30,985 nt of DNA from an uncultured Christensenellaceae bacterium (GCA_964453325.1 CAYVOZ010000005.1:1-30985); one strand, 5' to 3'. Counted from the stretch's first letter, positions 1-30,985 are shown. Numbers and translations are program-made. The notes: a model not told the origin generated them from the letters alone.

Positions 1-1369
1 GTGTGATTGCTCTATCCTCGTAAGGGTGTATATGAGAATGGCAGTCCGACCTTAAGTGTGCAGTTATTGTTCTACAAGGTCTATCTGCATACAATCTATA
101 GTATTTATCCTTGAACTTATCATTACGATGCGCATATGGCATTATGTCAGCAATCTTCGGATCGGTAGCATCATCCCCGGGATTCATTCTTCTGTAAATC
201 TCATAGTTCAATTCACTACAATAACGGGCTTTATGATTAAATACCAAAGGAATCTCTCGATCCTGATTTATTAGTCTCAAATATTCATTTTCCAGACCAG
301 TGTACGGATTTGAATCTATTTTTCTGCCGCCCTCTTCAGTATCAATTTCTCCCACATTCTTTTCATGAGGAGCCACTAATGATCGAACACCATCTAATGC
401 TTTTGATAAATTGTAAATAGGGTTGCTTTCATTATTCTCATGAATCTGCTTAAAAAGATCTTTAGGCGTTACATCCATTTTTTCTGAAACATCGTTTCGA
501 ATTGCAATATAAATCAATCTTTCTCTACTTTGTGCAACAGAAAAATCAGCGGAGTTCAAAAGTTCATAGTAAACGGAATAAGTGTAAGTGTATCCGTCCT
601 TGTGTATCTTCAAGCTTTCATAATCCTCGACTACTTGGTCAGCAACCTTCAGCATTCCTTTTACATTTTCCATTACAACAATTTTCGGTGAAAGTTGTTC
701 AATACACTTAATAAAAAATTTATACAATTCATTTCTCGGATCATCGATTACCCTATGATGCTTATTTGCTGAACTAAAACCTTGACATGGCGGACCCCCT
801 ATTACTACATCAACATCTTCATGAATATACTTACCAATGTGTTCTGAAATTTCTCTTATATCACCACAAACAATTGATTCTGAAGGTATTTCTGGATGGT
901 TATATTTATAAGTTTCAATACATAAAGGATCGAAATCGTTTGCAAAAAGAGTCTTAAATCCATTTTGTTTAAAACCAAGACTTAAACCACCTGCGCCACA
1001 GAACAAGTCAACCATTGTAGGTGCCAATCTGTTCTTTTCTATTTCCTGCAACTTTTTCCGTTCAGCATTGCTTAGATTAATTATAAATGGTTTAAACAGT
1101 CCATAATTTTCGTTAATAGTCGCAACAGCTCGGTATAAATCCTTAATTACTGATTTTGGCAGAACCGTTTGTAATAGGACTGCTTGGTCTGGAGAACCAA
1201 TAATGCCTATTTCAATCAGTCTATCTACCACCCCAGATTCATTAGTAGTATAAGAAAAAGAATATTTTTTACAAACAGCATCTACAATCTTTATCAATAA
1301 TGCGATTTTTTCCTTAAAATAGTTTTTCTCTGTAATTCCTTCTATATCTGAAACATTCTTAAATATCAT
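1..1369 (-). CDS. DNA (cytosine-5)-methyltransferase #2, 3'-truncated by the window edge, with ~118-aa N-terminal extension
   Basis: Hand translation, not in the ORF track. Open frame from ATG at 1369 to base 1: MIFKNVSDIEG...APTMVDLFCGAGGLSLGF (motif I)...VIGGPPCQGFS (IV)...VVMENVKGML (VI)...SVAQSRERL (VIII)...CRTITAHLRSDCHSHIHPYEDRAIT. Overlaps the stop of MTase #1 by 11 bp. Confidence 0.92.
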   Translation of the reverse strand, partial: MIFKNVSDIEGITEKNYFKEKIALLIKIVDAVCKKYSFSYTTNESGVVDRLIEIGIIGSPDQAVLLQTVLPKSVIKDLYRAVATINENYGLFKPFIINLSNAERKKLQEIEKNRLAPTMVDLFCGAGGLSLGFKQNGFKTLFANDFDPLCIETYKYNHPEIPSESIVCGDIREISEHIGKYIHEDVDVVIGGPPCQGFSSANKHHRVIDDPRNELYKFFIKCIEQLSPKIVVMENVKGMLKVADQVVEDYESLKIHKDGYTYTYSVYYELLNSADFSVAQSRERLIYIAIRNDVSEKMDVTPKDLFKQIHENNESNPIYNLSKALDGVRSLVAPHEKNVGEIDTEEGGRKIDSNPYTGLENEYLRLINQDREIPLVFNHKARYCSELNYEIYRRMNPGDDATDPKIADIMPYAHRNDKFKDKYYRLYADRPCRTITAHLRSDCHSHIHPYEDRAIT

Positions 1370-2585
1370 TTTTTTCCTCCTCAATCGGAGCAGATAAATA
1401 CGCACGAAAAGCTTTCGCTATTGCTTCTGCTAACAGCGGAGGAACTGCATTTCCGATTTGTTTAAACTGTTCTGTTCTAGATCCCTCAAAAATAAAATCA
1501 TCTGGGAAAGACTGTAGTCGTGCTGCCTCTCTAACAGTAATACTGCGGCCTTGAGTATAGTCAGGATGAATAAACTGATTTCCATCTTTATATAGATGCG
1601 CAATAATCGTTTTCGATGGAGTATCCCACCATTGAACTTTATAGCTATTAAAAAACACTCTCTTTTTCTCATGACCTAGGTCAGGGCGGTTCTCTAATAA
1701 CTCAAGAAAGTTCCAATGATTCAAAGCCATAACTTGATAGCGTTCTACATCCTTGGCATTATTGATTCGAGCCACATGACACCTCAAAACATTATCAGAA
1801 TTGGCTCTCATATGTCGTTGATATTCAGAGCACTCGTTTACATCCTTTGCATATTCAGCTATTGGGGTTCCTTCTCCTTGTCTTAACCATGGCAAGTCAT
1901 CAATAGCCTCTCGTACCGATACAAACTTCTTCTGCCCATCAGAAGGTATCTCACCAGGTGCATAGTGAGTCTTTGTAATGGCAGAATAAACTTCATCCGG
2001 CGTAAATTTTAAATCCTTCCTTACGCCCAAGAGTATTACACGTTTTCTCTCTTGTGGCACTCCGTAATGTGTTGCATTCAATACTATGGTTTCAGGATTT
2101 TTTACTATATTGTAATGAACACTAAGTTCTTTAGATACTAGGTCAAATATTTTCTTTCTTTTCACTTTAGCTTTTAGCATTCCTGTCACATTCTCAAAAA
2201 CAAAGACTTTCGGCAGAAAAGCATTAAGAATTTTAACATAACTTTCAAACAGGAAATTTCGAGGGTCATCCTCCATATTATTTTCATCTTTTGCTACACC
2301 TAAAGAAGAAAAGCTCTGGCATGGTGGACCCCCAATGATTACATCCACAGATTTATCGCCAACAACATCTCGAAGCCTATCAATAATATCTTCACTCGTT
2401 ATATCAGCCTCAAGCACAGCGTTCTTAACCTCTTGTTCTGAATACCCATAATGTTTCATACGAGTTCTCAATGTTTCACAAGCATAATGATCTATTTCAA
2501 CATGCGCAAGTGCATTGTATCCTTGCTTATAAAAGCCCTCCGTCAACCCTCCACATCCGGCAAAAAGGTCAATAAAATTTATCAT
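1359..2585 (-). CDS. DNA (cytosine-5)-methyltransferase #1
   Basis: C5-MTase motifs in order: DLFAGCGG, GGPPCQSFS, FENV, GVPQERKRV, REAARLQSFPD, QIGNAVPP. Confidence 0.96.
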   Translation of the reverse strand: MINFIDLFAGCGGLTEGFYKQGYNALAHVEIDHYACETLRTRMKHYGYSEQEVKNAVLEADITSEDIIDRLRDVVGDKSVDVIIGGPPCQSFSSLGVAKDENNMEDDPRNFLFESYVKILNAFLPKVFVFENVTGMLKAKVKRKKIFDLVSKELSVHYNIVKNPETIVLNATHYGVPQERKRVILLGVRKDLKFTPDEVYSAITKTHYAPGEIPSDGQKKFVSVREAIDDLPWLRQGEGTPIAEYAKDVNECSEYQRHMRANSDNVLRCHVARINNAKDVERYQVMALNHWNFLELLENRPDLGHEKKRVFFNSYKVQWWDTPSKTIIAHLYKDGNQFIHPDYTQGRSITVREAARLQSFPDDFIFEGSRTEQFKQIGNAVPPLLAEAIAKAFRAYLSAPIEEEKNDI

Positions 2586-2815
2586 AGTACATCCTCATCA
2601 TTCTCTTTATTTCGATCCGGGACATACTCGAGTACCTCTGAAATTTGACAGCCAAATACTGAGCATATTTTGTCCAGCGTATGTAAATCCACCTTTTTTA
2701 CATCTTCACGATATAAATCACCTATGGTGTTCGGCCTAATCCCAGTCAACTCCGAGAGTTTTTTTCTCGTCATTTTTTCTCGTCCCATTAGTTCACATAA
2801 TTTTATTTTTATCAT
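2582..2815 (-). CDS. XRE/Cro-C1-type HTH transcriptional regulator (controller-like)
   Basis: 77 aa, MTRKKLSELTGIRPNTIGDLY helix-turn-helix pattern, ICSVFGCQISEVLEY. ATGA overlap with MTase #1. Confidence 0.88.
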   Translation of the reverse strand: MIKIKLCELMGREKMTRKKLSELTGIRPNTIGDLYREDVKKVDLHTLDKICSVFGCQISEVLEYVPDRNKENDEDVL

Positions 2816-2842
2816 TATTCAACCTCACAATTCATGACAGAA

Positions 2843-2902
2843 AATAACGATTTTTGTTATATATTATCTTACCGTTGTTATTTAATAACGATTTTATTAT
2901 AT
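2843..2902. promoter_or_regulatory. Repeated operator-like motifs overlapping the -10 box/transcription start
   Basis: AATAACGATTTT at 2843-2854 and 2884-2895; ATAAC-N7-GTTAT (2844-2860); GTTATT-T-AATAAC (2877-2889). Confidence 0.55.
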
Positions 2903-2924
2903 CATACATGGTTCGTCATTTCAA
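2896..2924 (-). promoter_or_regulatory. SigA-type promoter for the XRE-MTase operon
   Basis: Minus strand TTGAAA (2924-2919), 17 nt, TATAAT (2901-2896), with TGn extension (TGATATAAT). Confidence 0.8.
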
Positions 2925-2944
2925 TCCATCAAAGCCATAAAATC

Positions 2945-2980
2945 ATAAAAAGATGTACCAGGTATTAACTTGGTACATCT
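2945..2980 (-). terminator. Intrinsic terminator of the DUF262 gene
   Basis: Perfect 10-bp stem AGATGTACCA/TGGTACATCT (2951-2980), followed by a T-run on the minus strand, 7 bp after the stop codon. Confidence 0.8.
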
Positions 2981-2987
2981 CAACATA

Positions 2988-5324
2988 TCAAATCATATAG
3001 TCACTAATTTCTATTTCTTCTATTTCTGGCTTTGAAAGCATCCATGTCATTGTTCCATCTGTATCCTTGAATAAAACAATGTGCCAATGAGTAATGGTCC
3101 CATCTTCGTCCTTTGAATTATTCAACCTTTCTATATGCTCCTCAATCAAGGAAACTGGCAATGCAACCATTATATTCTCATCTTTACAACCATATACTAC
3201 AAATGTTTCTTCGCAGTTCTTCAAATCCTCAAGAGGATTACGTCTATAAGCAAACCAGAACTTGTCACGTTTTCCTTGCTTGTACGCTTTAGAAGTCGTA
3301 ATCACATAACCATGTTTTCCGTCTGTCGTTACATACGAACTGCGTCCAACCTTGACTAATTCGGAATCCAAAGATTTTGCCAATCTCAACACGCACTTGT
3401 CAGCAAAATTCACTTTCTTGCTTTGCTGTTTAGGTTCTGAAACAGGTGTTATAACCTTCTTTGTAATCTCTTGCGAAGTATCCTCGATTTCCTCGTAAGC
3501 AATCCCCAAAGAGTTGCAAAGCAAATGTTTTATTTTGTCAAAACGCCTAGTGCAATAGTCTGTATAGTATTCCTTAAGAACAGGGAAATCATTTTCAGTA
3601 TATGGCATATCCATCCATTCAAGATCCGCTTCCTCGGTAAAACTGTATTTGCTTTCAACTTCATCCAAATTTACATGAAGCAGATATTTCTTATCTTGAT
3701 AGAAATTCTTATCTTTTTTGCTTCGATTAACATACTCAGGCAAATAACAAAGATTTGCTATACAGCTTATTGGTAACCCATCGCCATTGCAAGCTTCGAT
3801 GAGTTTTCTCATCTGCTCCTTTGGTGCAATGTGTTCAACATCAAATCGATCAATCGACAACTGATCCATGGCTGTAAAGGTTTTGAGATAAATACAATTA
3901 AGAATCACATACTCTTCACTTCGTGGACTTGCAACCTTTTTGACCTCAGCACGTAACATCGAACGTTCGAACAAACCATCCAATGCGACCATCCAGGCTC
4001 TACTAGATATTTCAGTCATGTATCTATTCGGTTTAGCCGCCGCATGAATTTTTCCAGTCCCGCCTTCACTCCAATAGTTTGTAATGATGTCATAGACATA
4101 GTACTGAACAAGATTCTTTGAGATTATATTTTTGCGTTCATTCCATGTGCCAGCAAAATTATCATAATTACCATTTGCATACATTTCTTTGAAAGTGGTT
4201 GAAATCATCGAAAGCACTTGATATTTAGAATGAAAAATCTTATTCGTGTTCCGAGAATTACCCTTGAATTTGGTCACAACAGAAATAGCACTGTTTACAA
4301 AATCAATAGCAGTACAGATGGCTTGCTCGAGAACATTCAGATCAATAGTACGAAGATTGGTATACAAGGTACGGATTCTATCTGTGTCGTTGAGGCAAGC
4401 ATTAACTAGCTCAAACGCAAGGGGATTTACTGTATCATCAGCAAGATTTTTATTAAACCCTAAAATTTCATATTTTGAAACCAAATACTTACTGAAACCA
4501 AATAGATACTCAAAGGCATTTACCCTTTTTGTTGTTCGCATCTCTTCACGACTGTATCCGTGAATTTGATAACCATCTTCCACAAAGGCATCATATTTGC
4601 GAACAATATTTTCGATGATATCAATGTTTTCAATAGTGTATTTTTCATTAACCGGCCAAGCAGCGGCGTATACCTCATACTGATCAAGTGGCGTACCTTT
4701 TGAATTGATACGGTCAAAGATATCCGGAAGATTACTCTCATCACCTATATAAACAATAACCGGTATTACAGTTCCTGCAATTTTATCATATAAATCCTGT
4801 CGCTCTTCAAAAAATATAGTGATGGTATCGATCAACCCTTCAATTGCATCGAAACTGGCATCAAACTCACCCGCTATCTGCTTTGCAACGGAGAAATATT
4901 GCAGGTTTTTAAATGTCTTCTGTTTCTTAATAAATGAAGTAAGGATGCCACGAATCACTGCATAATTATCCTTCCCCTCTTTTCCTAAGAGCGTCAGAAT
5001 ACTTTCGCAGAATTCGTCTGAAATACTATCATCGTAAAAAAACTCGGTAGGATTAGTCATGTATTTCTTGATACTGTTTCCTCGCTGTAATCCATCAACC
5101 AAAATATAAGTGCGCTTGTTGTCCTCAAACGTCTCATAAAAAAGCATAGTACCCACCGGGTAACCCTTAATCAAGGAATCTATAAATACCTGTTCTTGAG
5201 TACGGCTCCAACGCTTTCCACGTTGAAACATTGGAACAACAATTCTTTTATTATCTTTATGCATATCCTGGAGTGCAGAGGACAAATCCTGCAGTGTCCA
5301 GTTTTCACATGTGCATCCTGCCAT
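2988..5324 (-). CDS. DUF262 (GmrSD N-terminal) + HNH (DUF1524-like) protein with additional C-terminal domain; putative restriction/defence nuclease
   Basis: N-terminal VPMFQRGKRW, LVDGLQR and IFDRINSKGTPL motifs. HNH-like FDVEHIAPK...IANLCYLPEYVNRSK. About 140 extra C-terminal residues. Confidence 0.85.
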   Translation of the reverse strand: MAGCTCENWTLQDLSSALQDMHKDNKRIVVPMFQRGKRWSRTQEQVFIDSLIKGYPVGTMLFYETFEDNKRTYILVDGLQRGNSIKKYMTNPTEFFYDDSISDEFCESILTLLGKEGKDNYAVIRGILTSFIKKQKTFKNLQYFSVAKQIAGEFDASFDAIEGLIDTITIFFEERQDLYDKIAGTVIPVIVYIGDESNLPDIFDRINSKGTPLDQYEVYAAAWPVNEKYTIENIDIIENIVRKYDAFVEDGYQIHGYSREEMRTTKRVNAFEYLFGFSKYLVSKYEILGFNKNLADDTVNPLAFELVNACLNDTDRIRTLYTNLRTIDLNVLEQAICTAIDFVNSAISVVTKFKGNSRNTNKIFHSKYQVLSMISTTFKEMYANGNYDNFAGTWNERKNIISKNLVQYYVYDIITNYWSEGGTGKIHAAAKPNRYMTEISSRAWMVALDGLFERSMLRAEVKKVASPRSEEYVILNCIYLKTFTAMDQLSIDRFDVEHIAPKEQMRKLIEACNGDGLPISCIANLCYLPEYVNRSKKDKNFYQDKKYLLHVNLDEVESKYSFTEEADLEWMDMPYTENDFPVLKEYYTDYCTRRFDKIKHLLCNSLGIAYEEIEDTSQEITKKVITPVSEPKQQSKKVNFADKCVLRLAKSLDSELVKVGRSSYVTTDGKHGYVITTSKAYKQGKRDKFWFAYRRNPLEDLKNCEETFVVYGCKDENIMVALPVSLIEEHIERLNNSKDEDGTITHWHIVLFKDTDGTMTWMLSKPEIEEIEISDYMI

Positions 5325-23612: not shown

Positions 23613-24842
23613 TCATATCATCCAAATAGGCACTATCAAATTATCGCGGTCGAATGCACTGAGTCTGTCGGCCATACAGAGTATTGCGCCGGTTCCGGGA
23701 TGCAGCGGCGACTTGTCGATAACGCCAAAGGTGCGTACGAGGCGCCTGTCCGGCGCGGACGTCTTTTTTATCTCCAGTGGGCAGAGCCTGCCGTCGCTTT
23801 CCAGAATAACGTCGATCTCATTGGCGTCCCGGTCGCGGTAGTAGTGTATATAAGGCTCGCGTCCGGCGTTCTGATAGCTCTTCATGATCTCGGATACAGT
23901 GAAGTTCTCAAGAAGAGCACCGCTCATAGCTCCGCTTTCGGCCACCTCGGGCGACGACCAGCGCGTCAGATAGCAGACAAGGCCGGTATCGTAAAAATAC
24001 AGCTTAGGCGTCTTGATCGTGCGCTTAAGAACATTGTTCGAGTAGGGATGAAGAAGGAACACGATACCCAGCGTCTCAAGAATGTTTAACCAGTTTTTGC
24101 ACGTGACCTGGTCGATGTCGGAATCTTCGGCGATAGAACTATAGTTTACGAGCTGTGAGGCTCTGGCGGCAACAGCCGTAATAAAACGAATAAACTTCAA
24201 TGCGTCCACAGAGCCGGAAAGATCACGGACGTCGCGCTCCACATAGGTCGAGAGATAAGAGGAATAGAAAATGTCACGTCCGGTAAAAGCGCCGCTGATA
24301 AGACCGGGCATACAGCCCGTCCACAGACGTTTGAACAGCTCAGGAGTGGTCATAGGTTTTATTGACTTGCTCTGTTCAGCGAGCGTTTCAAAGTCGGTCG
24401 TGAACGGAACGCAGTCGGAGTCCGCAATTTCCCGCTGTGATAACGGCGACATATGCAAAAGCGCCACGCGTCCGGCGAGAGATTCCTGCACACCCCGCAT
24501 CAGTCGAAAGATCTGTGAGCCTGTCAGCCAGAAATCTCCGGGTCCATGGTACTCGTCCACATGGATCTTGATATAGGTGAACAGCTCCGGCGCGTACTGT
24601 ATCTCGTCAATGAGAACCGGAGGCTTATGAAGCTGAAGAAACATTTTCGGATCGTTCTTTGCAAGCTCACGCATATTCAGGTCGTCGAGTGATACATACT
24701 CCCGACCGATGTTTTCACGCGCGGCCAGTTCCCGCAGCATCGTCGTTTTGCCTGCTTGCCTCGGCCCGGTCAACAAGATCACCGGCCAGCTTTTGCTAAG
24801 AGCCTGCACGACTTCTTCCATATGCCGTTTGATATACTTCAT
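23613..24842 (-). CDS. AAA+ ATPase (AAA_14) with DUF4143 C-terminal domain
   Basis: Walker A GPRQAGKT, Walker B LIDEIQ, LTGS, KLYFYDTGL, and PD-(D/E)xK-like EIDVIL...PLEIKK. Start moved to ATG 24842. Confidence 0.9.
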   Translation of the reverse strand: MKYIKRHMEEVVQALSKSWPVILLTGPRQAGKTTMLRELAARENIGREYVSLDDLNMRELAKNDPKMFLQLHKPPVLIDEIQYAPELFTYIKIHVDEYHGPGDFWLTGSQIFRLMRGVQESLAGRVALLHMSPLSQREIADSDCVPFTTDFETLAEQSKSIKPMTTPELFKRLWTGCMPGLISGAFTGRDIFYSSYLSTYVERDVRDLSGSVDALKFIRFITAVAARASQLVNYSSIAEDSDIDQVTCKNWLNILETLGIVFLLHPYSNNVLKRTIKTPKLYFYDTGLVCYLTRWSSPEVAESGAMSGALLENFTVSEIMKSYQNAGREPYIHYYRDRDANEIDVILESDGRLCPLEIKKTSAPDRRLVRTFGVIDKSPLHPGTGAILCMADRLSAFDRDNLIVPIWMI

Positions 24843-24885
24843 AACACACCGCCATTCCCGCATCGGAAACAATGCTGTTTATATC

Positions 24886-25055: not shown

Positions 25056-25616
25056 TTACTCCGCGATCCCGGGAGCGGGGTATACGGGCTCCTCGGCGGG
25101 GGCAAAGAAGCTCTGCGGATGCGAGCAGACCGGGCAGACCGCGGGAGCCTCGTCCGCATAGTGTATATAACCGCAGTTCGAGCATACCCACAGTATGCGC
25201 TGCGGCTTTTTGAATACCTCTCCGCTTTCGAGCTCGGAGAGCAGCGCCTCGTACCTTTGCATATGCGAGTGCTCTATTTTTGCTACCGCCTCAAAGCGCT
25301 GCGCCTGTGCGAAGAAGCCCTCCGCTTTTGCGTCCGCGGCAAAGCCCGCGTACATATCCGACCATTCGTATCTCTCGCCGTCGGCGGCATTTTTGAGATT
25401 TGCTAGCGTGTCGCCTATGCCGCCGACTATATCCGAATACCATATCTTTGAGTGCGCAAGCTCGTTTTCCGCGGTCAGCTCGAATATCCTAGCTATATTG
25501 TTATAGCCCTCCTTGCGCGCCTTCTCCGCAAAATATCTGTATTTGGCATATGCCTGCGTCTCGCCCGCCCATGCCGCGAACAGATCCTCATAGGTCTTTG
25601 AGCCCTTTAATTCCAT
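25056..25616 (-). CDS. rbr: Rubrerythrin
   Basis: AGETQA, ENELAH, GERYE, IEHSH diiron motifs plus C-terminal CSNC...CPVC rubredoxin-like domain. Start moved to ATG 25616. Confidence 0.93.
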
Positions 25617-25691
25617 AAAAAATACCACCCTTCGCTTTTTCGGATAGAATGTCCGTGCGGGGGCGGTATTATGCGGCGGCGCATGTTTTTT

Positions 25692-26909
25692 TCAGGGCGT
25701 ATAGCCCTTCATTAAGAGCACGCGGTATGCGCTCTGCTCGAGCCGCTCGCGCGTGAGCCTGCCCGAGGACAGCGCATCGTAAAGAGCGGTAAAGACCTTT
25801 TCCTGACGGCTCACGGTCTTGCCTATGAGCACGAGATCTCCGCCGGCCTCAATAAAGCGCACGGAGCCTTCTCCTATGCCTACCGTGGAGGCGATCGCCT
25901 GCATGCGCATGTCGTCCGACATTATCACGCCCTCAAAGCCGAGGGAATCCCGGAGAATATCGGTAATAAAGACGTCCGAGACGGAGGTTATGTCGCCGCA
26001 GACGGCGGGATAGGACATATGCGCCACGAGCATGCCGTCGAGCCCCGCGTCTATCGCGGCGGAAAACGGCAGAAGCTCATAGGAAGCGAGCTCGTCGTAT
26101 GTCGTTTGCAGCACGGGCAGCTCGTCGTGGGGGTCGGTGGCGGTGGAGCCATGCCCGGGGAAATGCTTGCCGAAGCTCTTTACGCCGCCGTCCTTAAGGC
26201 CGCGCACAGCTGCGTCCGCATGACGGGACGCGACCTCCGCGTCTCCGCTGAACATGCGCTTTCCGAGAAAGGTGGAGAGCGGCTCGGGCGCGATATCGAG
26301 CACGGGCGCGAGGTCTATGGTTATGCCGATCTCGCTGAGCCTGCCGCCTATGCGCAGGTATTGCTGATATGTATACTCCGTATCGTCCTTCTGACCGAGC
26401 GTATACGCGGAGTTTATGGACGGGCTCCACGAAAAGCGCAGCACACGCCCGCCCTCCACGTCTATGGCAAAGGAAAGCGGTATATCCGTGGGGTTGGCGT
26501 CGTTTACGCTGTCTATGAGCGCGGCGGTCTGCTCAAAGGACTCCGTGTTGTTGCCGAAGAGTATTATATTGCCGACCTTGTACTCCTCCATAAAGTCAAG
26601 GAAGCCCCCGGACGGCGAGGACACGCCCTCAAAGCCGCACATCACGAGCTGGCCTATGAGCTCCGCGTCGGACAGGGAATCTATGAGCGACTGCACCGCG
26701 TCCGGCTCCGGAGTCGGCTCGGGGGTCGGTGCCGGGGTCGGTACCGGGGTCGGCTCGGGCGTCGGCGCCGGCGTGGCTATCGGCGGAGGCGAGGGGAGCT
26801 GGAGACCCGAGGGGTATTCGCTTTTGCCTGCGTTATCCGCGCAGCCGGCTGCGCCTATGCACAAAACAAGCAGCATCGCCGTCAGCGAAAGGAGTTTCTG
26901 TTTAGTCAT
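25692..26909 (-). CDS. nagZ: GH3 beta-N-acetylhexosaminidase (NagZ-like) lipoprotein with Pro/Thr linker
   Basis: Lipobox GAAG-C23; IDVEGGRV, KHFPGHG, DPH, SDDMRM motifs. Confidence 0.88.
   Translation of the reverse strand: MTKQKLLSLTAMLLVLCIGAAGCADNAGKSEYPSGLQLPSPPPIATPAPTPEPTPVPTPAPTPEPTPEPDAVQSLIDSLSDAELIGQLVMCGFEGVSSPSGGFLDFMEEYKVGNIILFGNNTESFEQTAALIDSVNDANPTDIPLSFAIDVEGGRVLRFSWSPSINSAYTLGQKDDTEYTYQQYLRIGGRLSEIGITIDLAPVLDIAPEPLSTFLGKRMFSGDAEVASRHADAAVRGLKDGGVKSFGKHFPGHGSTATDPHDELPVLQTTYDELASYELLPFSAAIDAGLDGMLVAHMSYPAVCGDITSVSDVFITDILRDSLGFEGVIMSDDMRMQAIASTVGIGEGSVRFIEAGGDLVLIGKTVSRQEKVFTALYDALSSGRLTRERLEQSAYRVLLMKGYTP
26703..26795 (-). repeat. Low-complexity coding repeat (PTPA/PTPE/PTPV)n linker
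   Basis: Translated PSPPPIATPAPTPEPTPVPTPAPTPEPTPEP; 12-bp periodicity in the DNA. Confidence 0.9.
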
Positions 26910-29900
26910 CGGCTATCTCGAGCTCCTCCTTTGTGACTACTCTCGGGGGCCGCTTGCACAGCGAGTCGTAGAGTATGGGTATCACGAACAGCGTCATAAA
27001 CGTGGCGTATATGAGGCCGCCTATGCAGGTCACGGCGATGGGCTGCACGAGCGACGCGCCGGTGCCAATGGCAAAGGCCATGGGTATGAGTCCCAATATC
27101 GTCGTGAGCGCGGTCATGAGCACGGGGCGCAGCCTCGTGAGGCAGGCCTCCGTGACGGCCTCGCGCCGCCCGGCGCCGCTCTTGCGCAGCGTGTTCATAT
27201 AGTCTATGAGCACTATGCCGTTATTCACGATTATGCCCACGAGCATGACGAGTCCTATCATGGCCACGACGCTTATCTCCATATTTGCTATGAGCAGCGC
27301 CGCGAGTCCGCCCGTCGCCGCAAGGGGTATCGTGAACATGACTATAAGCGGAGACAGCAGCGACTGGAACTGAGCCACCATTATGAGATAGACTATGACT
27401 ACGCCTAAAAGCAGCATGAGCACGAGATCGCCGAGGGAGGACATTATGGTGTCGTTCTCGCCGGTGTCGATAAGGTACGTATCGCCGGGCAGCTCGAGCT
27501 TTTCTATGCGGGCTGCTGCGTCCGATGCGGTGAGAGTCACGTTATGCCCGTCAGCGACGGACGCGGTGACCGTAAGACAGCGCTTCTGATTCTGCCTCGA
27601 TATCGAGGCCAGCGTCTCGCCCTCGGATATGTCCGCGATGTCCGAAATGGGAGTGCTTATGCGCGTTCCGTCGGTGCGGCTCGTCTTTGTCAGCACGAGC
27701 GAGCGTATATCGTCCGTCGTTATCTCGTCTGTGCCTTCCGACGTGACGGTGACGCTCTTGCCGTCGATATCGTTCGTGAGCGTGGCGGTAGAGAGCTCTG
27801 CCGATACGGAGGCGTATACCTCCGCGACAGTGAAGCCCGCGCTCATTGCGGCGTCCTTATCTACTGTTATGACGAGCTCGTGAGAGGTGGTGTCTATGCC
27901 GTCGCTTATCTCCTCTATTCCGTCGACGCCCTCGAGCGCGGACGCCGTCATTCGCGCCGCCTCGGTGATATCGGCTATATCCGTGCCGTATACCGTGTAT
28001 GCGAGCCCGGAGGACGTCAGCGCAGAGCCCGTCATGGCGGAGGACGTGCCGGATATCGAATAATCCTCAATGCCGTGCGCGGCGAATATCTCGTTCATGC
28101 GCTGCTCGATCTCTCCGCCGCCGGAGTTCGTGCCGCCCTCGAGCACGGCGTACATCGTGACCTCGTTAGACGAGCCTGAACCGGAGGAAAGACCTATCAC
28201 TCCCGCGAGCCCGCTCGACTGCATCACACCGACGTCGGACACTCCGGGTATCTTTGCTATATCCGCTGCGGCGGCGTCGCAGACCTCCGCCGTATCGGCG
28301 AGGGTATTGTCCTCGTCGAGCGTTATATTGGCCATTATCTGAGTGCTCTCCATGGAGGGCATGAACGTAAAGCCCTTTGAGACGGAAAGCACGACCGTCA
28401 GCGCCAACAGCAGCGCGGAGAATACGAGCGTGAGGACCTTATGCTTCATCGTAAAGCCGAGCATGCTGCCGTATACGCGCTTCATGCCCTTGTTGAGGCG
28501 CGAGTCGCGCGTGCGGTTCTTTCTTAACACGCCGGAGGCCATCGCGGGGACGAGCGTGAGGGCGATTATAAGGCTGGCGAGCAGGGAATACGCTATCGTG
28601 AGCGCGAGATCCTGAAAGAGCTGCCGCGTTATGCCCTGCAAAAACACTATAGGCAGAAATACGCATACCGTGGTGAGAGTGGACGCGATGAGCGCGCCCG
28701 TGACCTGTCCCGCGCCGGAGATAGCCGCCTTAAAGGGCGAAAAGCCCAACGTGCGCAGGCGGAATATGTTTTCAATAGCGACTATGGAGTTATCCACGAG
28801 CATGCCTACGCCCACGGCAAGCCCCGCGAGGGATATGACGTTGAGCGTGACTCCCAAAAAGTACATGAGCACGACTGCGAACGTGACGCTCACGGGTATG
28901 GAGAGCGCGACTATGAACGTCGGTCGGATATCCCAGAGGAAGAAGAACAGTATCACTATCGCGAGCACCGCGCCGAGCAGCAGGTTTTCCAGCACGGAGT
29001 TTATGACTATATGTATATAGTCGCCCTGATCCATGAGCGCTGTGAAGCTTATGCCCGGGTATTCGGCGGTGAGCTTATCGAGGGTCTCCGATATGTTTTC
29101 GGAGGCGGTCGCCGTGGCAAAGCCGGACTGCTTGCGGAAGGAATAGAGCACGCCGGACACGCCGTTCATCTTGGCATATATGCCGTCAGCGTCGCTTATA
29201 GTCTCCGCTGTGGCGACGTCGGAGAGCTTTATGGGGTCGAGACCGTCCATGTCGAGGTCGAGCAGCGTGAGGGACCTCAGCTCGTCGATATCCGCAATGC
29301 TGTCGCCCACGCTCACGAGCCAGCTTTCGCCGTTTTCGTCGGCATAGCCCGCAGGCATGGAAAAGTTCTGCGCAAAAAGTATATCCGAGAGCATGCTTTT
29401 TGTTAAGAGCACGCCTAAATCCGCGCTGTCGTATGCGGACTGCTTCGCGTCTTCGATCTGCTCCTCCGCGCCCTCTATCTGCTCCTCCGCGCTGTCTAAC
29501 TGCGCGGACGACGCTCCGAGCATCTGCTCTCCCGCGACGATCTCCGCCAGCTTTTCATACATCTCATAATCCGCGGCGGCCTTGCTCGCGGCTAACTGAG
29601 CGCGCGCGTCCTCTATGCCCGTCTCGCCGCTTGAGAGCTGCGAGAGCGTGCCGTTGAGCTTTGCAATATTCGCGTTTAACGCCCCGAGTGCGGTGTTGAT
29701 CTGCGTGAGCGTGCCGCTGAGCGCCGCAAGATTCGTGTTTATGGTCGTGACGCCCGCCGTAGCCGTTGCGATGGCGTTCGGCAGGTCGGCTCTCACGAGC
29801 CCCTTAGCCGAGAGCTGTGCGTCTATATCCGCGAGCGCTGTCTCTATTGCCGCAAACTCGGGACTGTTGGCAGTGAGATAGGCTATCGCAGCGTCCCTCG

Positions 29901-30930
29901 TGAGAGAGGGGTCCGCTGCCATGGCTGCGGATATGAGCGCCTCGCGCTGTGAATCGAGCTGCGCCAGACCGTCGGAAAGCGCAGTGAGCGCGGCGAGCGC
30001 CGTCTCGGCGTCCGCTTTTTGCTGCTCCAGCCCGTCGATGCCGGTCTGCGTCGCGGTAATGTTCGTCTCGAGCTCTGTCTTTTTGCCGGTGAGCTCCGCA
30101 AGCGCCGTTGTGAGCTGCAGCTTTGCCTCTATGAGGGCGTACTCCTGCTCGTTTATCTTTCTGTCCGCTGCGGCGAGCTGTGCGGAGAGCTCCTTTTGAG
30201 CCTTGCCGAGCGCGCTTTTGCCGTCCTTTATCGAGTCGAGGCCCTCGTCCGTATCGAGTCTGCTCTTTTCGAGCTCCTCGCGTGCGTCCGTGAGCTCCTG
30301 CTCGGATTCCTCGAACTGCCTGTCTATTGCGGCGGTTATTTCCTTGTTTTTACTCTCTATAAGGGCGTCGTCGAGCACGACCCTTATGCTTTCGGTCACT
30401 ATGCCGCCGGGCGTCACGCCCGCTACGCCCTCAATGCCGTCGAGGCGGGGGGTGATCTTTTCGCTCGCGAACTCCGAAAGCTCGGTCACGCTCATATCCC
30501 CTCCGAGAGCATATACCGCGGTGGGTATCATGCTCGGGTCGATCTTAAGTATGGTGGGCGTACCCACGGTATCGCTCCACGCGGCGGAAACGAGGTTCAG
30601 CTTTTCGCGTATATCTATAACGAGCGTGTCCATATTCGCGCCCTCGCCGAACTCGAGAGTTATCATCGAATAATTGGGCGAGGATACGGAGGATACGTTT
30701 TTGATATTGTCGAGAGTAGCCATCTGCTGCTCTATAGGCCGCGTCACCTCCGTTTCGACCGAAGAGGGCGATGCGCCGGGGTAGGTCGTGACGACCACCG
30801 CATACGGAAACTCCATAGCCGGCAGCAGGTCGGGCGTCATATTTAAAAAGGACACGACGCCAAGTATGATTATGAGTATTATACCCACGAGTACGGTAAA
30901 CGGCTTTTTGACACTGAATTTTGCGAGCAT
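26902..30930 (-). CDS. RND efflux permease (AcrB/AcrD/AcrF family) with ~315-aa coiled-coil insertion
   Basis: TTYPGASP..VE.EVT.PIE, GVGMLVDNSIVAIENIFR, GIIVNNGIVLIDY, RLRPVLMTALTT motifs. 1342 aa versus about 1030-1050 for typical AcrB-family proteins. Confidence 0.93.
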   Translation of the reverse strand: MLAKFSVKKPFTVLVGIILIIILGVVSFLNMTPDLLPAMEFPYAVVVTTYPGASPSSVETEVTRPIEQQMATLDNIKNVSSVSSPNYSMITLEFGEGANMDTLVIDIREKLNLVSAAWSDTVGTPTILKIDPSMIPTAVYALGGDMSVTELSEFASEKITPRLDGIEGVAGVTPGGIVTESIRVVLDDALIESKNKEITAAIDRQFEESEQELTDAREELEKSRLDTDEGLDSIKDGKSALGKAQKELSAQLAAADRKINEQEYALIEAKLQLTTALAELTGKKTELETNITATQTGIDGLEQQKADAETALAALTALSDGLAQLDSQREALISAAMAADPSLTRDAAIAYLTANSPEFAAIETALADIDAQLSAKGLVRADLPNAIATATAGVTTINTNLAALSGTLTQINTALGALNANIAKLNGTLSQLSSGETGIEDARAQLAASKAAADYEMYEKLAEIVAGEQMLGASSAQLDSAEEQIEGAEEQIEDAKQSAYDSADLGVLLTKSMLSDILFAQNFSMPAGYADENGESWLVSVGDSIADIDELRSLTLLDLDMDGLDPIKLSDVATAETISDADGIYAKMNGVSGVLYSFRKQSGFATATASENISETLDKLTAEYPGISFTALMDQGDYIHIVINSVLENLLLGAVLAIVILFFFLWDIRPTFIVALSIPVSVTFAVVLMYFLGVTLNVISLAGLAVGVGMLVDNSIVAIENIFRLRTLGFSPFKAAISGAGQVTGALIASTLTTVCVFLPIVFLQGITRQLFQDLALTIAYSLLASLIIALTLVPAMASGVLRKNRTRDSRLNKGMKRVYGSMLGFTMKHKVLTLVFSALLLALTVVLSVSKGFTFMPSMESTQIMANITLDEDNTLADTAEVCDAAAADIAKIPGVSDVGVMQSSGLAGVIGLSSGSGSSNEVTMYAVLEGGTNSGGGEIEQRMNEIFAAHGIEDYSISGTSSAMTGSALTSSGLAYTVYGTDIADITEAARMTASALEGVDGIEEISDGIDTTSHELVITVDKDAAMSAGFTVAEVYASVSAELSTATLTNDIDGKSVTVTSEGTDEITTDDIRSLVLTKTSRTDGTRISTPISDIADISEGETLASISRQNQKRCLTVTASVADGHNVTLTASDAAARIEKLELPGDTYLIDTGENDTIMSSLGDLVLMLLLGVVIVYLIMVAQFQSLLSPLIVMFTIPLAATGGLAALLIANMEISVVAMIGLVMLVGIIVNNGIVLIDYMNTLRKSGAGRREAVTEACLTRLRPVLMTALTTILGLIPMAFAIGTGASLVQPIAVTCIGGLIYATFMTLFVIPILYDSLCKRPPRVVTKEELEIADD

Positions 30931-30985
30931 GCTTTACACTTCCTTTACCGTTATAAAATAACACAGTTTTATTTCGGCGGACAGT

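Follow-up and report, generated by a model that had tools for sequence, protein, structure and literature searches.

A helical hairpin stalk in the docking domain of a Clostridia RND permease, a candidate substitute for missing partner proteins

Pumps that belong to the RND (resistance-nodulation-division) superfamily are textbook three-part machines of Gram-negative bacteria, and little is understood of the way in which they function in single-membrane bacteria. The 30,985-nucleotide contig considered here, from an uncultured Christensenellaceae bacterium (GCA_964453325.1, CAYVOZ010000005.1:1-30985), carries the complete gene of an RND permease in which a predicted helical hairpin of about 320 residues is inserted at the place where partner proteins would dock. 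We refer to this whole stretch of DNA, which is the entire contig C5 of its assembly, as the window. An earlier note had proposed that the hairpin may be a built-in TolC substitute. The reading that we prefer, and to which we assign a probability of roughly one half, is that the protein is a stand-alone exporter whose hairpin stalk takes over a role like that of the membrane fusion protein (MFP) and TolC.

Comparative evidence for this reading is a contrast in partner genes between pumps with and without the stalk. Our comparison sample comprised 250 genomes of the same class, 87 of which carry the Pfam family ACR_tran; pumps were taken as insert-bearing where the ACR_tran match is split at profile position ~197, leaving, after the tree described below, 15 genes in 13 genomes. 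None of these 15 has an MFP gene (TIGR01730) within 10 kb, nearly all MFP matches lying on other contigs, none has a gene of the outer membrane efflux protein (OEP) family nearby, and 11 of the 14 stalked-pump genomes that were searched are without any OEP match. By contrast, an MFP gene adjoins every one of the 47 stalk-less RND genes (28 genomes, pumps of ~1000-1100 aa), the gap being within ~200 nt in 46 of them, and an OEP-family gene lies at most 5 kb from 14 of the 47 and, as a weak match, from a fifteenth. The contrast of 0/15 with 47/47 therefore establishes two designs in the sampled genomes of the class, a pump with an adaptor, often together with a TolC-like protein, or a stalked pump alone. 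Because the stalked lineage is without the helper genes that its stalk-less relatives always carry, the stalk probably stands in for the missing helper proteins, a reading of gene content that fits the data, which amount to one evolutionary event.

The idea of a TolC substitute thus fares well insofar as it concerns the replacement of a partner, which agrees with these counts, and has to be amended in that the first partner to be replaced is the MFP, not TolC alone. The accompanying premise that monoderms lack TolC seems too simple, as many genomes of the same class have OEP-family genes beside RND-MFP pairs. Complete MFP-RND-OEP clusters are found in many of them, for example at G043:C1:755851-761230, G020:C1:2142039-2146971 and G237:C3:68023-73654 (our numbering of genomes and contigs), and the TolC-family proteins of the sampled clusters are ~380-440 aa long (compare PMC11170357).

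The gene next to the pump on its downstream side encodes a glycoside hydrolase family 3 (GH3) lipoprotein, so that the earlier remark that no MFP gene follows was correct. A nearby MFP or outer membrane factor, which the note had named as speaking against its proposal, is found neither beside the gene (downstream) nor at 68 related loci nor in the 13 sampled genomes. The 68 loci come from different species and their neighbours were called with a simple longest-open-reading-frame gene caller; no HlyD family occurs among the 25 commonest families per position, a count that a rare MFP neighbour could escape. What does occur immediately next to these pumps is a TetR gene (13 upstream, 18 downstream), an extracytoplasmic function (ECF) sigma factor gene (9) or a MatE gene (4). 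The closest relative (L071) has a TetR gene upstream of its pump, a complete genome of the same family (G195) has one downstream and no MFP, and on three homologue-bearing contigs either a TetR gene or nothing adjoins the pump. The frequent linkage to TetR (and MatE) in relatives suggests an inducible export of toxic or amphiphilic compounds. In the genome of origin the pump is the sole ACR_tran gene by whole-genome scan, and each of the two MFP genes that were detected is part of a MacB-type ABC operon on another contig. The same genome (86.6% complete) gives no match to Omp85, LpxC or OEP/TolC; the host looks like a monoderm, with which these negatives agree.

The gene and the parts into which we divide it are as follows, all on the minus strand.

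26902..30930 (-): RND permease gene in full, 1342 aa and a stop codon (open reading frame list and translation; Pfam ACR_tran, E 3.4e-197).
30370..30930 (-): N-terminal core, aa 1-187, with the first transmembrane helix (TM1), PN1, PN2 and the first strand of the docking subdomain DN (aligns with MdtB 17-202 and MexB 2-196; AlphaFold2 secondary structure).
29914..30369 (-): stalk arm 1, aa 188-339, predicted as a single 152-residue helix (AlphaFold2 of the insert alone, fragment H4-155, block pLDDT 83-98; heptad registers).
29794..29913 (-): stalk tip, aa 340-379, with predicted short helices 345-355 and 357-375 and the family motif S-x-E-Y...A-Q-L-x-A-x-G (AlphaFold2; family consensus).
29422..29793 (-): stalk arm 2, aa 380-503, predicted as one helix of 124 residues in which G435 and L446 are nearly invariant (AlphaFold2; conserved columns; heptads).
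26902..29421 (-): C-terminal core, aa 504-1342, with the remainder of DN, TM2-TM6, the second external loop (PC1, PC2, DC) and TM7-TM12 (aligns with Pfam profile 198-1017 and MdtB 208-1019; motifs VDN in TM4, VNN in TM10, RLRP in TM11).

Outside the insert the protein is an RND permease of the AcrB/AcrD/AcrF family. The match to ACR_tran (PF00873) scores 657.8 bits against a cut-off of 28 and falls into two stretches, an N-terminal piece at profile 2-208 (whole-genome scan) and profile 198-1017 at aa 509-1321. It is the only family found at E <= 0.01; there is no match to MMPL (PF03176) at that threshold, while relatives show weak secondary MMPL matches on the C-terminal transmembrane bundle. 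Among proteins of solved structure the best sequence match is E. coli MdtB (phmmer, E 2.5e-99). An AlphaFold2 model of aa 1-1200, which leaves the last ~140 residues outside, has a normal RND core with a helical insert at a mean predicted local distance difference test score (pLDDT) of 76, rising to 84-94 for aa 270-430, and its top Foldseek matches are AcrD, CmeB, AdeJ and AcrB (probability 1.00, TMt 0.53-0.62). Scores for the NCBIfam subfamilies RND_permease_2 and RND_permease_1 (560.4 and 407.7 bits) stay far under the curated cut-off of 1250 bits, and public databases name such pumps merely efflux RND permease subunit. Profile scans reveal no OEP domain (PF02321) in the protein or in the inserts of its family, and Pfam and NCBIfam scans no HlyD-type, lipoyl or beta-barrel domain in the protein or its insert.

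The AcrB-type proton relay consists of Asp-Asp in TM4, Lys in TM10 and Arg in TM11. In the present pump TM4 reads V-D-N rather than carrying an Asp pair (D713-N714; aa 711-721, window ~28768-28800), TM10 reads V-N-N with Asn in place of the Lys of MdtB (aa 1234-1244, window ~27199-27231), and the TM11 Arg is retained in an RLRP motif. Clostridia RND pumps with a stalk and those without one have VDN and VNN in the majority of cases, and for this reason a proton-relay change specific to the stalk was rejected; judging from these motifs, the relay of Clostridia RND pumps of both kinds departs from the AcrB/MdtB paradigm. Still present is the segment that aligns with what we take to be the intermonomer loop of DN in AcrB.

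The position of the insert follows from alignments to solved pumps (phmmer), in which query residue 190 corresponds to MdtB 202, residue 509 to MdtB 208 and residue 194 to MexB 196. Because residues 190 and 509 align with MdtB 202 and 208, ~318 residues stand in place of ~5. The insert had been put at 29416-30363, which is exactly codons 190-505, and both of the flanks given for it are in place, IRVVLDDAL ending at aa 190 and LTKSMLSDILFAQNF beginning at aa 509. From the sequence alignment together with the published domain plan of AcrB (PMC8277102) the site would fall after the first strand of the DN docking/funnel subdomain and before its first helix, so that the location first proposed for it is borne out by the MdtB and MexB alignments.

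Modeled alone, the insert is predicted with a pLDDT of 92.4 to form one antiparallel hairpin, in which one helix spans aa 188-339, a second aa 380-503, and two short ones make up the tip between them, and not the disordered or collapsed chain that would have told against a stalk. This agrees with the turn at aa ~335-385 that had been read from the sequence, and the predicted arm lengths of 152 and 124 residues are near the ~130 residues (~19-20 nm) first estimated. At ~0.15 nm per residue the paired part would measure ~18-19 nm, the longer arm ~22 nm and the stalk overall ~19-23 nm; added to a height of ~7 nm for porter plus funnel (PMC8277102), a stalk directed outward would take the pump to ~26-30 nm above the membrane. 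The composition of the insert is 20% Ala, 13% Leu and 10% Glu, with no Cys and 3 Met by segment count, and its three prolines are confined to the tip (341 and 357) and the start of arm 2 (P384). The nearest solved folds in Foldseek are the antiparallel coiled coils of Rad50, SMC arms and chemoreceptors, with MmpL5 at rank 40 (E 0.27); as only generic coiled-coil hairpins are returned, a specific structural kinship of the stalk was rejected. A search of the ESM Atlas with the insert gives unnamed clusters scoring at most 0.91, plus one ACR_tran cluster.

Both arms carry a coiled-coil signature. Over 81 aligned homologues, at 28% identity per column in the insert region, the heptad pattern is kept, and family-averaged hydrophobicity has a 3.5-residue period with a 2.33 harmonic on both arms that fades in the tip. 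Position d is a large hydrophobic residue in 81-90% of cases in three of the four arm segments, while in basal arm 1 the pattern is reversed (a 93% large hydrophobic, d 86% small); position a is large hydrophobic in 34-93% over the four segments. At position g, Ala, Gly, Ser and Thr make up 56-82% and acidic residues at most 6% in basal arm 2 and in the distal parts of both arms, segments in which position e is polar or acidic. The stretch aa 385-453 of the query contains 9% charged residues and 55% Ala/Gly/Ser/Thr. In an antiparallel pair of arms the g positions come to lie on one side of the core, which gives every hairpin a single flat face that is conserved and uncharged. Such a face would allow lateral packing against another helix pair, though with the other flank (e) polar it is no proof of a barrel. 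These heptads correspond to the "type II" heptads of MmpL5, whose modeled barrel combines type I and type II heptads (PMC12501195).

A Leu/small-residue pattern is visible in the family heptad statistics, and 16 of the 81 inserts, the query not among them, match TIGR03057 (the xxxLxxG repeat) at E <= 0.1, best 9.2e-5. The stalks may resemble xxxLxxG ectodomains in having Leu at a core position, a small residue three further on and a presumably extracytoplasmic helix in a membrane protein of a Gram-positive cell, although the matches are weak and the present pump gives none. We take these repeats to be those of YhgE/Pip-type membrane proteins of Firmicutes.

Conservation is concentrated in the basal ~70-90 residues of each arm, in the tip motif and at G435/L446 of arm 2, with little beyond the heptad leucines kept in the distal stalk. 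G435 and L446 are at least 90% conserved within an otherwise variable arm and lie opposite a conserved Q-x-A-x-A-x-x-E-L patch at aa ~248-262 of arm 1; together these residues could be a functional 'waist' of the stalk. The length of the insert varies greatly. Across 76 full-length genes, each from the genome of a different species, a core of ~1020 aa is combined with an insert of 132-392 aa, and close relatives can differ by ~90-140 stalk residues. The changes are paired: two proteins of 71% identity are set apart by gaps of 21 residues that mirror each other (263-283 and 503-523), the most frequent combinations of arm lengths, 161/147 and 168/154, are one heptad apart in each arm, and arm lengths, as alignment-anchored counts, correlate with a Spearman coefficient of 0.61 over 60 sequences, kin not being independent. 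Locating the hairpin tip through a motif regular expression or through prolines was dropped as too noisy. The heptad register, the paired indels and the conserved base and tip establish that the insert is real and under purifying selection.

A tree was calculated from 1010 core columns of 59 proteins with the insert removed (IQ-TREE, LG+G4, quick search; midpoint root only). All sampled insert-bearing Clostridia pumps form one clade with an SH-aLRT of 100, within which a basal subclade has short inserts (~39-84 extra residues) and the long-stalk clade (38 rows) again has an SH-aLRT of 100. Sister to the insert clade are Clostridia pumps without a stalk and with a linked MFP. The insert therefore has a single origin among the sampled Clostridia pumps and, since the partner contrast maps to one branch, it is an association and not a case of repeated co-evolution. 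A 1168-aa RND permease (L115; G152:C12:96900-100950) that had been scored as stalked was removed from the clade counts, as it lies outside the clade and has no insert at the profile ~197 site. In this protein the profile region 201-246 is matched twice, ~96 aa apart, and the nearest MFP is 14 kb off; it may be a second, independent variant without an MFP.

The preferred reading, that of a stand-alone exporter whose stalk does the work of its partners, can be put as a mechanism. A proton-driven RND exporter with the fold of AcrB and MdtB (hydrophobe/amphiphile efflux, HAE-1-like) bears a ~320-residue predicted antiparallel coiled coil inserted at DN. The pump would be trimeric like its relatives, as the segment aligning to the DN intermonomer loop suggests, and the three hairpins would rise from the rim of the exit funnel, pack through their small-residue g faces and make a six-helix stalk. 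Such a stalk would assume the job done in other Clostridia pumps by an MFP hexamer and a TolC-like trimer, moving the exit ~20 nm off the membrane into the zone of the wall, where amphiphilic substrates would be freed far from the bilayer.

Several observations weigh against this reading. Since peptidoglycan lets small molecules pass, it is not obvious why a monoderm should need a duct. The partner contrast is one event, in which MFP loss and insert gain may be coincident and not causal, and basal members with only ~39-84 extra residues are also without an MFP, so that either order, MFP loss first or stalk gain first, is possible. The neighbourhood of the pump's own copy is that of the downstream side only, the upstream side being cut by the contig end. 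Changes of more than 100 stalk residues between close relatives disfavour a docking partner at fixed length and are also compatible with weak constraint. The polar e positions are unlike those of fully bifaceted, barrel-forming repeats and, finally, the full-length monomer model has a pLDDT of only 42-57 at the stalk base (aa ~220-240 and 460-500). A hinge at the arm breaks seen in that model (aa 224-234 and 469-475, pLDDT <50) was considered and set aside as an artefact or mere flexibility, the helices of the insert-only model being continuous there at ~90.

A more specific possibility, the strong form of the note's proposal, which we regard as tentative, is that the stalk is a sealed hydrophobic six-helix tube, a convergent copy of that of MmpL5, through whose lumen substrates travel across the wall zone. 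The closest parallel is indeed with the cluster-I MmpL proteins MmpL4, MmpL5 and MmpL10 (PMC12501195, PMC12122801, PMC12183618), RND pumps of the HAE-2 type in which a long hairpin of antiparallel coiled coil likewise interrupts an extracytoplasmic domain and which likewise dispense with TolC or AcrA-type partners. In MmpL trimers the three hairpins have been modeled or imaged as a tube-like extension (PMC12501195, PMC12183618), and for MmpL5 the 196-aa insert, which is needed for efflux, is modeled as a barrel of six helices, ~13 nm long and with a lumen of 7-9 A (PMC12501195); MmpL10 provides a further analogy (PMC12183618). The Leu/Ile residues at a and d together with the small residues at g, and the loss of both duct-forming partners in the clade, are what a tube would lead one to expect. 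However, a funnel mouth of ~30 A could not be sealed by six helices at the base without tapering, polar or acidic residues at e leave small residues on one core flank only, the Met lining and tip disulfide of MmpL5 have no counterpart in an insert with 0 Cys and 3 Met, and Foldseek, as described above, returns generic two-helix hairpins ahead of MmpL5.

The differences from MmpL extend further. The present family is ACR_tran and not MMPL, its insert lies in the first external loop (DN, profile ~197) while that of MmpL is in PD2 of the second loop, and the insert is ~320 aa long as compared with 196 aa in MmpL5, whose tip cysteine pair and Met-rich core it does not share. The host appears to be without an outer membrane of any kind, unlike MmpL hosts. 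MmpS (PF05423) gave no match in the genome of origin, but control genomes gave none either. That in single-membrane Clostridia one polypeptide should be the whole tripartite pump, with a hydrophobic ~20-nm six-helix duct that takes amphiphilic substrates out of the exit funnel and across the wall zone and that evolved once from MFP/TolC-dependent ancestors and independently of the MmpL tube, is in our view a speculative proposal of about the same standing as the tube itself.

Somewhat less probable is that the stalk is a strut and not a duct, serving to drive or stabilise the trimer or to space the pump from, or anchor it to, peptidoglycan, with substrates leaving the funnel sideways. The coiled-coil domain of MmpL10 drives trimerisation (PMC12183618), the poorly conserved distal stalk and its very labile length are as expected of a spacer, and the heptads are mostly canonical a/d. 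Yet pumps of the AcrB type, as we understand them, trimerise through the DN loop with no such domain, and the aligning segment is present here; moreover, a strut alone gives no account of the missing MFP and OEP genes around the clade.

It is rather unlikely that the stalk is an adaptor-like hairpin whose conserved tip docks to a wall-spanning or S-layer partner encoded elsewhere, in the manner of MFP tips onto TolC. The tip motif is among the better conserved parts of the insert, and a tip partner has also been proposed for MmpL5 (PMC12501195), but 11 of 14 genomes with such pumps, like the genome of origin, gave no OEP-family gene, regulators are the only conserved neighbours, and a length range of 132-392 residues fits poorly with a partner at fixed distance. 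That the insert is a low-complexity expansion without function, or an artefact of assembly or annotation, as the biased composition and the generic nature of the model matches (SMC, Rad50, myosin) might suggest, can be dismissed on the conservation data given above, on the open frame, on the recurrence of the architecture, which is seen in 76 or more species genomes and in at least 1938 protein clusters matching aa 150-560 at E <= 0.001, and on an identical sequence on one other, independent Logan contig, which begins inside the gene.

Two further comparisons concern the kinship of the pump. With the HAE-1 permeases AcrB, MdtB and MexB the pump shares core fold, domain order, the TM4 Asp, the TM11 Arg and the DN-loop segment (Foldseek TM ~0.6 over the core), and it differs from them in the 320-aa DN hairpin, the lack of MFP/OMF (outer membrane factor) genes, the Asp-Asn of TM4 and the Asn of TM10. 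Closest by descent are the stalk-less Clostridia RND-MFP(-OEP) systems, from the same class and the sister lineage on the core tree and with the same TM4 and TM10 motifs, for which a described example is C. difficile CD630_24060-24080 with the pump CD630_24070 (PMC11170357); an MFP gene adjoins all 47 such pumps in the sample and a TolC-family gene often accompanies it, whereas the stalked clade has neither. Antiparallel coiled coils set side by side as a duct above an inner-membrane pump are familiar from the hairpins of AcrA and MacA and the helical barrel of TolC (PMC8277102). Those ducts are built of 12 helices from separate proteins, while a stalked pump could contribute at most 6, all its own, and the insert has none of the lipoyl, beta-barrel or OEP domains of MFP and TolC.

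No description of stalked Clostridia RND pumps was found in the literature searched. An RND pump with a coiled-coil extension is a kind known from MmpL; the form with ACR_tran, the first loop and a Clostridia host is the one for which no description was found. This lineage is common in Clostridia of gut, rumen and digesters and appears to trade two partner proteins for a stalk grown from the pump itself. In this it parallels MmpL5, the drug pump of tuberculosis whose coiled-coil tube was reported in 2025 and from which it differs in RND family, loop and type of envelope. If the stalk is a duct, an exit across the envelope without partners would have been invented a second time, independently, and the pump would offer a simple, single-gene system for studying the passage of small molecules through helical barrels. 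The natural series of stalk lengths, from ~40 to ~390 extra residues on a conserved base, is a ready-made experiment, and the pumps have a bearing on the tolerance of gut and bioreactor Firmicutes to bile acids, antimicrobials and solvents.

The source assembly is a metagenome bin from a bioreactor sample (86.6% complete, 3.45% contamination, 270 contigs). The window, being the whole contig, stops 55 nt before the start codon of the pump. The two features that flank the gene are given below.

30931..30985 (-): 55 nt preceding the start codon, with an AAGGAAG ribosome-binding site and, at its upstream limit, the contig end (sequence read).
25692..26909 (-): GH3 (NagZ-like) lipoprotein gene downstream, overlapping the pump stop by 8 nt, context only (Pfam and NCBIfam matches; lipobox and Pro/Thr-rich linker in the translation).

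The GH3 protein is a NagZ-like beta-N-acetylhexosaminidase with a lipobox (...AAGC) and a Pro/Thr-rich linker of ~40 residues, and the 8-nt overlap of its start with the pump stop suggests translational coupling of the two genes. A tethered wall hydrolase adjoining a pump that may reach the wall is suggestive, yet the pairing is not conserved in relatives, GH3 not being among the common downstream families at 67 related loci. Further downstream are a rubrerythrin gene (25056-25628, minus strand) and an AAA_14/DUF4143 ATPase gene (23613-24872, minus strand), both ordinary and with no sign of a link to the pump.

At the other end of the contig, positions 1-5324 form an island of 35-38% GC, as compared with 51-62% GC in the remainder, that holds two genes for C5 cytosine DNA methylases (2-1405 and 1359-2585, both on the minus strand) and one for a GmrSD-type restriction endonuclease (2988-5324, minus strand) and has the look of a defence island gained by horizontal transfer. 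DNA near-identical to 26902-30985 is present in metagenomes from bioreactors, wastewater, sludge and biogas fermenters and in one from faeces, and the organism is therefore to be counted among the Clostridia of anaerobic digesters and wastewater and not as strictly of the gut.

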